64,000 nt of DNA from sequence record PQ571307. The stretch is one strand, 5' to 3'. The number at the start of each line of letters is the position of its first letter. Position 1 is the first letter of the stretch. Below, piece by piece: positions 18,069 to 18,611 of the stretch. The position numbers were made by a program, and so were the translations under genes. The notes beneath the pieces were generated by a model that was not told the origin of the DNA, ran no database searches, and saw nothing but the letters and a program-made list of their open reading frames with translations. This DNA is from Shigella phage SF1-1.

Positions 18069-18611
18069 TCACAAATATCGTCTTTGCGGTATTTTGTCTG
18101 GGAAAAGTATTTCGATCAGTTTATTATGATATTTGCCTAAAAGATTTTGCCCTTTCCAGTTGACCGGATTTAGCACCCCTGGTTCATACATTCCCATTCC
18201 AATTCCGTAAACCTTATCGTAGGGGCTTGCTTCAACAAACGTTTTGTATTGGTAAAGGTGTAAGTCTGCATACAAATCTGGATTCTGTACATATTTCAAG
18301 CATAAACCTCGCATAACAATACGCTCACGGTTCTCTTCCCATACATTGTTATCAAAATCCGACACTGCCCTACCCATACGTTTGTAATAAGCTTGGATCT
18401 TCTCATCTTTCCGTATCAAACTATGAGTCAGAATAGCCTGTGCAGTGTTGTGGTCATTAAAAAGCAAAGCTTTACGCCACATCATATATTGTTCGACACA
18501 ATTAAATGTCTGATTGTAACCTGGTTCGGTTTCTGTAAAGGGTGCAATATACCAATTACTAAAAACATCTTTATGTGAAAAGAAGAATACATAATCATCA
18601 GTTATTCGCAT
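18069..18611 (-). CDS. NADAR-domain (YbiA-like) protein
   Basis: 180 aa; FFFSHKDVFSNWY..PF......F...EQYMMWRKALLF.D......I...........GR.V..FD...WEENRERIVMRGLCLKYVQNPDL...L.....K.F.EASPYDKVYGIGMG matches the E. coli YbiA/NADAR signature (FSNF...EHYFQA.KF...GR...W..M...L.AKF.Q...L...L..T..L.E....D.YWGDG). Confidence 0.75.
   Translation of the reverse strand: MRITDDYVFFFSHKDVFSNWYIAPFTETEPGYNQTFNCVEQYMMWRKALLFNDHNTAQAILTHSLIRKDEKIQAYYKRMGRAVSDFDNNVWEENRERIVMRGLCLKYVQNPDLYADLHLYQYKTFVEASPYDKVYGIGMGMYEPGVLNPVNWKGQNLLGKYHNKLIEILFPDKIPQRRYL

Follow-up and report, generated by a model that had tools for sequence, protein, structure and literature searches.

The stretch of DNA analyzed here, referred to below as the window, comprises 64,000 nt of Shigella phage SF1-1 (PQ571307). 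The open reading frame (ORF) at positions 18069–18611 on its minus strand was confirmed to be a real, intact, and full-length NADAR domain with the alpha-helical core of the NADAR/YbiA fold. Judged by amino acid identity, synteny, and phylogeny, the encoded protein is an ortholog of AdfN^Bas60, and by analogy with that enzyme it is probably a DNA glycohydrolase acting on guanine-ADP-ribose, which would clear DarT1 marks from phage DNA.

Identification of the NADAR gene

18069..18611, minus strand: NADAR gene, 180 aa, ATG start, stop codon within the coordinates; predicted guanine-ADP-ribose DNA glycohydrolase, AdfN^Bas60 ortholog
18620..18625, minus strand: putative Shine-Dalgarno-like sequence AGAAGG, 8 nt 5' of the NADAR ATG, as read off the sequence

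The original prediction had described a clear NADAR signature at positions 18069–18611, and this was borne out by profile, sequence, and fold comparisons. When the protein was compared with Pfam, the NADAR family (PF08719; DUF1768) matched over nearly its full length (profile positions 3–154 of 163) with an E-value of 1.8e-35 and 123 bits (cutoff 35.1). The NCBIfam equivalog-domain model TIGR02464 scored 112.3 bits (cutoff 73.7), and phrog_1017 matched with an E-value of 7e-52. The sequence match in the PDB was 8BAU, a NADAR protein of Phytophthora nicotianae (E-value 4e-15, 29% identity). The AlphaFold2 model, for which the input alignment contained 58 homologs, had a mean pLDDT of 95.6, and a Foldseek search of the PDB with this model returned only two significant matches, 8BAU (TM 0.79) and E. 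coli YbiA (2B3W, TM 0.68). The N-terminus, MRITD.YVFFF, is kept in the homologs. The assignment is of value for annotation: many phage records name this gene “hypothetical” or “GTP cyclohydrolase II.” The gene had also been placed in the early region of the phage, a label drawn only from its position and orientation; a promoter scan of the NADAR region found 21 sites, compared with 17.6 expected from shuffled sequence, and hence no enrichment.

Conservation of the active site

Residue roles were taken from the study describing the ADP-ribose co-crystal (PMC11543638) and transferred through a HMMER alignment to 8BAU, whose chain numbering equals that of the paper +2. In the P. nicotianae NADAR, roles have been assigned to E43, K50, R79, W89, R93, E125, D130, and W133 (PMC11543638), which correspond in the window protein to E40, K47, R81, W91, R95, E127, D132, and Y135, respectively. 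The catalytic set E40, K47, and E127 (E88, K95, and D171 in E. coli C7) is present. The original prediction had named assignment to an unrelated family, or the loss of the catalytic residues, as what would speak against it; the family matched was NADAR, and all three residues were found. The residues that contact the ADP-ribose pyrophosphate, R81, W91, R95, and D132, are also kept, and the sole departure, from W133 to Y135, is conservative and common to the whole clade, including the functional AdfN^Bas60. Among the 58 homologs, E40, K47, W91, E127, and D132 are invariant. The residue at the third catalytic position is Glu, as in the YbiA/“NADAR” type, and not the Asp of the DarT1 antitoxins or the His of the T4-like proteins.

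Relatives of the phage and selection on the NADAR gene

The window is from a phAPEC8-like phage of the genus Phapecoctavirus, subfamily Stephanstirmvirinae. Over the 3.5 kb around the NADAR gene, its DNA is 98.6% identical to that of phage BI-EHEC and approximately 91% identical to that of phAPEC8, and the NADAR protein itself is 100% identical to its counterpart in phage nepoznato. When the protein was used as a tblastn query, relatives were found in 718 phage records. The dN/dS values between the window NADAR gene and four other Phapecoctavirus alleles were 0.02–0.16, indicating purifying selection and thus a selected coding gene, far beyond what chance would give.

The alleles of phages Schickermooser and REC differ from that of the window in an uneven manner. 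At codons 33–90 (window positions 18342–18515), which span helices 1–3 and the insertion specific to the clade, synonymous sites are saturated and dN is approximately 0.21, whereas dS elsewhere in the gene is approximately 0.19. Positive selection on these codons was considered and rejected because of the saturated synonymous sites, which instead point to a recombined, more divergent segment, that is, an intragenic patch. At the greater distance of 42–45% identity, NADAR homologs were seen in prophage-like surroundings (in Burkholderia, beside a Gp3-like gene) or in jumbo-phage-like surroundings (on a 328-kb contig). From the surroundings examined, viruses seem to be the main carriers of this lineage of Glu-type NADARs.

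Orthology with AdfN^Bas60

AdfN^Bas60, which is found in the BASEL phages Bas60–62, neutralizes DarT1 in uninfected E. coli, and it restores the plaquing of the unrelated phages RB69, T5, and Bas25 on a host carrying DarTG1; when the host carried DarTG2, T5 was not rescued (Johannesman et al., Nat Commun 2025, PMC11825919). In that study, AdfN^Bas60 was assayed by ectopic expression only, not by deletion from its own phage, and an in vivo effect against DarT1/DarTG1 has been shown solely for AdfN^Bas60, AdfN^Bas32, and AdfN^T4 (PMC11825919). Bas60–62 form the phi92-like sister group of Phapecoctavirus (Maffei et al., PMC8594841). The AdfN^Bas60 gene is bas60_0111 (QXV83846.1) of phage PaulScherrer, which is now placed in the sister genus Justusliebigvirus.

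The window NADAR shares 59% amino acid identity with the bas60_0111 product (E-value 7e-69). The two phages also have a common gene order at this locus, consisting of an ATPase gene, an endonuclease gene, the NADAR gene, approximately 0.8 kb without a long ORF, and a small ORF on the opposite strand. In a neighbor-joining (NJ) tree of 118 homologs rooted on YbiA, the clade that contains the window NADAR and AdfN^Bas60 was obtained in 198 of 200 bootstraps, and it lies apart from the other sampled homologs; AdfN^Bas32 was left out of these comparisons. Furthermore, the two proteins have in common a 7-residue insertion at approximately residues 66–72 that is absent in other NADARs.

Gene neighborhood

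17977..18013, minus strand: terminator-like hairpin GGCUCCUACAGCACCGUAGAGAGCC, followed by UGUUAUUUUGU (U-rich run), beginning approximately 55 nt past the NADAR stop codon; RNA fold −24.4 kcal/mol, z = −3.2
18598..19165, minus strand: two small ORFs, phrog_22330 and phrog_24465, flanked by the endonuclease and NADAR genes
19159..20166, minus strand: endonuclease-like gene with two CapR homology domains (Pfam CapR, E-value 1.5e-23; phrog_681 endonuclease)

The hairpin downstream of the stop codon marks the NADAR gene as the final one of a leftward transcription unit, and in the record of phAPEC8 the corresponding site is annotated as a putative terminator. Upstream, the adjoining small ORF overlaps the start of the NADAR gene, its stop codon (positions 18598–18600) falling within the initial 14 nt. 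The two small ORFs occur in Phapecoctavirus and are missing in Justusliebigvirus, where the endonuclease gene abuts the NADAR gene. The CapR endonuclease is 335 aa long in the window, 394 aa in phAPEC8, and 467 aa in Bas60, and this variation in length suggests a mobile, homing-type element. The endonuclease is probably the passenger of a mobile element rather than a functional partner of the NADAR protein, and it may be linked to the mosaic NADAR alleles described above. Searches with Pfam, PADLOC, and PHROGs detected no ART or DarT signature in the ORFs neighboring the NADAR gene, and since no such gene lies nearby, the window NADAR is an orphan. A functional link with the neighboring genes was also considered and found to be unsupported: the AAA ATPase, the CapR endonuclease, and the two small ORFs gave no matches related to ADP-ribose (ADPr) or NAD, and the small ORFs are those missing in the sister genus.

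Several other elements of the leftward region were recorded. Between the NADAR stop codon and a convergent plus-strand ORF (16992..17264) lies approximately 0.8 kb (17265–18068) that contains no long or annotated ORF, and neither a tRNA nor an Rfam family was detected in it. This segment has AT-rich direct repeats, with three copies at a 29-nt period (17521–17628) and a 72-nt pair (17641 and 17779), and related phage records annotate repeat regions at the equivalent position. It also contains a Fur-box-like site at 17526–17544, which matches 16 of the 19 bases of GATAATGATAATCATTATC; a second such match (16/19) is located at 9440–9458 in a leftward cluster of small ORFs, so that the window has two Fur-box-like matches compared with 0.08 expected. 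The segment at 17265–18068 could serve as an origin of replication or have a regulatory role. A perfect 8-bp GC-rich hairpin, AAACCCGCCGAAGCGGGTTT, is located at 20200–20219, where the ATPase gene is followed by the endonuclease gene; it is readable on both strands and may act as a bidirectional terminator or an attenuator. On the minus strand at 10727–11110, the window encodes a homolog of T4 gp30.8 (Pfam Phage_30_8, E-value 6e-29); the block of T4 genes that includes 30.8 also includes 30.3 (AdfN).

A companion macrodomain gene

37447..37920, plus strand: macrodomain gene, 157 aa, second predicted ADP-ribose eraser; T4 Tk.4/AdfM- and SCO6735-like; 19 kb from the NADAR gene and on the other strand
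36606..45844, plus strand: Ter-like stress/nucleoside-metabolite gene cluster around the macrodomain gene
27749..28117, plus strand: DUF4326 protein (Pfam, E-value 1.9e-20)

The original prediction had paired the NADAR protein with a TARG1-like macro domain and suggested that the phage may carry two ADP-ribose erasers. Among ten scanned ORFs of the leftward gene cluster, none encodes a macrodomain. The gene at 37447..37920, in the rightward cluster, does; it had missed the E-value threshold of 0.001 in a scan of concatenated ORFs (in which the GS linkers produced spurious “Serglycin” matches) and was spotted by eye, then confirmed. Its product matched Pfam Macro by a narrow pass (23.1 bits, cutoff 22), the PADLOC DarG model with an E-value of 4e-10, and T4 Tk.4 with 36% identity (E-value 7e-21), and a homolog is also present in phi92. 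Its best sequence matches in the PDB were SCO6735 (5E3B, 9e-13), TARG1 (2e-6), and the DarG macrodomain (5M31, 3e-6). Positions K84 and D125 of TARG1, which we take to be its catalytic dyad, align to Q and A in the window protein, as they do in SCO6735, so that “SCO6735/Tk.4-like” describes the macrodomain more accurately than “TARG1-like.” The macrodomain itself was thus found as predicted, while its proposed TARG1-like subtype did not hold in the strict sense; the expected pair of putative erasers is nevertheless there, as a NADAR protein and a Tk.4/AdfM-like macrodomain, and it mirrors that of T4. Tk.4 has been named AdfM and is reported to be the anti-DarTG2 factor of T4, which pairs AdfN with AdfM (2025 preprint, 10.1101/2025.11.20.689424), and SCO6735 is among the enzymes that reverse thymine-ADPr (PMC12945103).

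The Ter-like cluster comprises genes for a ComF-like PRTase (36606..37433), the macrodomain, a TerC-like membrane protein (by the annotation of a relative), a SprT-like protein, a vWA-TerF-like protein, and TerD. Because it is embedded in this cluster, the macrodomain gene might serve that pathway instead. The DUF4326 family is rhodanese-phosphatase-like; its predicted activity is the processing of terminal phosphates on derivatives of ADP-ribose, and fusions of it with Macro, NADAR, or SLOG domains are frequent (Iyer et al. 2022). Its gene may be a third NAD/ADPr-related gene of this phage.

Proposed function and alternatives

We propose that the stand-alone NADAR would cut the N-glycosidic bond between ADP-ribose and guanine N2 in DNA during infection, and would in this way remove the replication-blocking marks put on phage DNA by a DarT1-type toxin of the DarTG1 abortive-infection system. 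The protein would thus act as an “orphan antitoxin,” an anti-defense enzyme of the AdfN type, and the Tk.4/AdfM-like macrodomain would cover thymine ADP-ribosylation by DarT2. That NADARs reverse DarT1-type guanine ADP-ribosylation, as the original prediction had stated, agrees with the published biochemistry (PMC11543638). The counter-defense role that it envisaged gains support from the 59%-identical, syntenic AdfN^Bas60, which neutralizes DarT1 and restores growth on a DarTG1 host (PMC11825919). NADARs of all four families hydrolyze G-ADPr in vitro, yet E. coli YbiA and T4 gp30.3, which do so as well, gave no rescue of cells from DarT1 (PMC11125620), so that hydrolysis of G-ADPr in vitro does not predict protection in vivo. 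In the literature, we found no biochemical or genetic study of a NADAR from any Phapecoctavirus. By analogy, we infer that the window NADAR would match AdfN^Bas60 in substrate and, within its own phage, in role, and that it would be expressed early enough to matter. These phages are exceptionally sensitive to restriction (PMC8594841), and for this reason their DNA is probably unmodified; on unmodified DNA, the window NADAR should act like AdfN^Bas60, with no need for a phage-specific context, unlike the AdfN of T4.

Three other functions were weighed against DarT1 reversal. It is improbable, although the likeliest of the three, that the main target is another ADP-ribosylated base or another toxin (C-ADPr or G-ADPr, in RNA or DNA, as made by pierisin/ScARP-like, YarT-like, or other ART systems) and that DarT1 reversal is a side activity. 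Glu-type NADARs, including SCO5665, the sponge NADAR, and YbiA types, remove both C-ADPr and G-ADPr, and all NADAR families remove G-ADPr from RNA (PMC12945103). A YarT-YbiA toxin-antitoxin pair exists, and the window NADAR matches the PADLOC candidate-defense component PDC-M42C at 120 bits, indicating that NADAR relatives occur in other putative systems. However, the sole in vivo phenotype of the ortholog concerns DarT1/DarTG1 (PMC11825919), and no role of C-ADPr in phage defense is known (PMC12945103). The Stephanstirmvirinae NADAR clade is characterized by the Glu-type site, the Tyr in place of W133, and the 7-residue insertion, which is basic and lies just before the helix bearing the ADPr-binding Arg. 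A tentative and rather unlikely extension is that this clade is a broad-spectrum de-ADP-ribosylase, acting on C- and G-ADPr in DNA and RNA and protecting against ART defenses beyond DarTG1, for example, pierisin/ScARP-like, YarT-like, or PDC-M42-type systems.

It is very unlikely that the window NADAR degrades small ADPr-derived immune signals or toxins, such as the cADPR isomers or ADPr-1''-phosphate of TIR, sirtuin, or ART systems. Such a role has been proposed for phage NADARs on contextual grounds (Iyer et al., PMC9503650), and Macro and DUF4326 genes are present in the same genome; however, the assayed NADARs all have base-linked ADPr of nucleic acids as their substrate and none has been shown to act on such signals, and DNA de-ADP-ribosylation explains the DarT1 phenotype of the ortholog.

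Slightly less likely still is housekeeping during infection by a metabolic YbiA-type N-glycosidase that clears reactive riboflavin-pathway intermediates or another damaged nucleotide: the protein passes TIGR02464, “riboflavin biosynthesis intermediates N-glycosidase” (112 vs 73.7 bits), its catalytic Glu is that of the YbiA subfamily, and several phage records label the gene “GTP cyclohydrolase II” or “YbiA-like N-glycosidase,” but the 29% identity with E. coli YbiA is confined to the C-terminal half, the scanned ORFs of the window include no riboflavin-pathway gene, the closest homologs with examined surroundings lie in phage- or prophage-like regions and not in riboflavin operons, and DarT1 is neutralized in vivo by the ortholog AdfN^Bas60 but not by YbiA (PMC11825919, PMC11125620). 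TIGR02464 evidently covers Glu-type NADARs broadly. DarT1 reversal on phage DNA is probable and is the best supported of these readings.

If this reading is true, the phAPEC8-like phages own a ready-made pair of DNA de-ADP-ribosylases, the NADAR protein for guanine and the macrodomain for thymine. The pair would predict resistance to both DarTG1 and DarTG2, which would help in matching phages to the defense repertoires of their hosts; phAPEC8-like phages are frequent candidates for phage therapy directed at avian-pathogenic and enterohemorrhagic E. coli. It would also mean that the AdfN/AdfM pairing of T4 recurs in an unrelated lineage of myoviruses whose DNA is unmodified. Because the NADAR family, its chemistry, and its anti-defense role are already established, the finding opens no new question.

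Comparison with known NADAR proteins

E. coli YbiA (2B3W), like the window NADAR, has the NADAR fold and scores above the TIGR02464 cutoff. The two proteins align only partially, over the C-terminal half, with 29% identity, and YbiA acts on riboflavin intermediates and gives no protection against DarT1 in vivo (PMC11125620 for DarT1). For a comparison with the NADARs linked to the sigma70 operon, the rpsU-dnaG-rpoD region of E. coli O157:H7 Sakai was inspected, and no NADAR gene is annotated there. The best structural match, the P. nicotianae NADAR 8BAU, represents the “NADAR” family, to which SCO5665 and others belong; it has the same Glu-type site and ADPr contacts as the window NADAR, but it comes from a eukaryote and its peripheral insertions differ.

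The DarG1 antitoxins of the BC4488 subfamily, from E. coli C7 and G. lovleyi, share the superfamily and the chemistry of the window NADAR, namely, the reversal of guanine-N2 ADP-ribosylation (PMC11543638). They differ in having a catalytic Asp (D171), an N-terminal beta-beta-alpha DNA-binding extension, and a gene located beside DarT1. Membership of the window NADAR in this subfamily was rejected, since it has Glu127 rather than Asp, its domain begins at residue 1 and the extension is absent, and no DarT gene lies nearby. When a profile of the window family was compared with the PDB, YbiA and 8BAU were the only structures found, with no DarG1 structure among them.

T4 gp30.3 (AdfN^T4), the prototype of the “phage NADAR” family PF08010, is likewise an orphan enzyme of the NADAR superfamily that is directed against DarTG1 and encoded by a large E. 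coli myovirus. Assignment of the window NADAR to this T4 type (PF08010, Phage_30_3) was nonetheless rejected, because PF08010 did not match, the BLASTP comparison with gp30.3 was not significant, and the catalytic residue is Glu and not His. The two types also differ in their range of action: AdfN^T4 acts only in the context of T-even infection, whereas the Bas60 type acts on unmodified DNA (PMC11825919 for Bas60).

Compared with AdfN^Bas60, 41% of the residues of the window NADAR differ, and its N-terminal loop at residues 27–33 is shorter, the Bas60 protein having a longer insert there. At the level of the locus, the two small ORFs that separate the endonuclease gene from the NADAR gene in the window phage are additional to the Bas60 arrangement. 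In other respects the two proteins are alike: both are stand-alone enzymes of approximately 180 aa with a Glu-type site and a Tyr in place of W133, and both are encoded by myoviruses of E. coli belonging to Stephanstirmvirinae.
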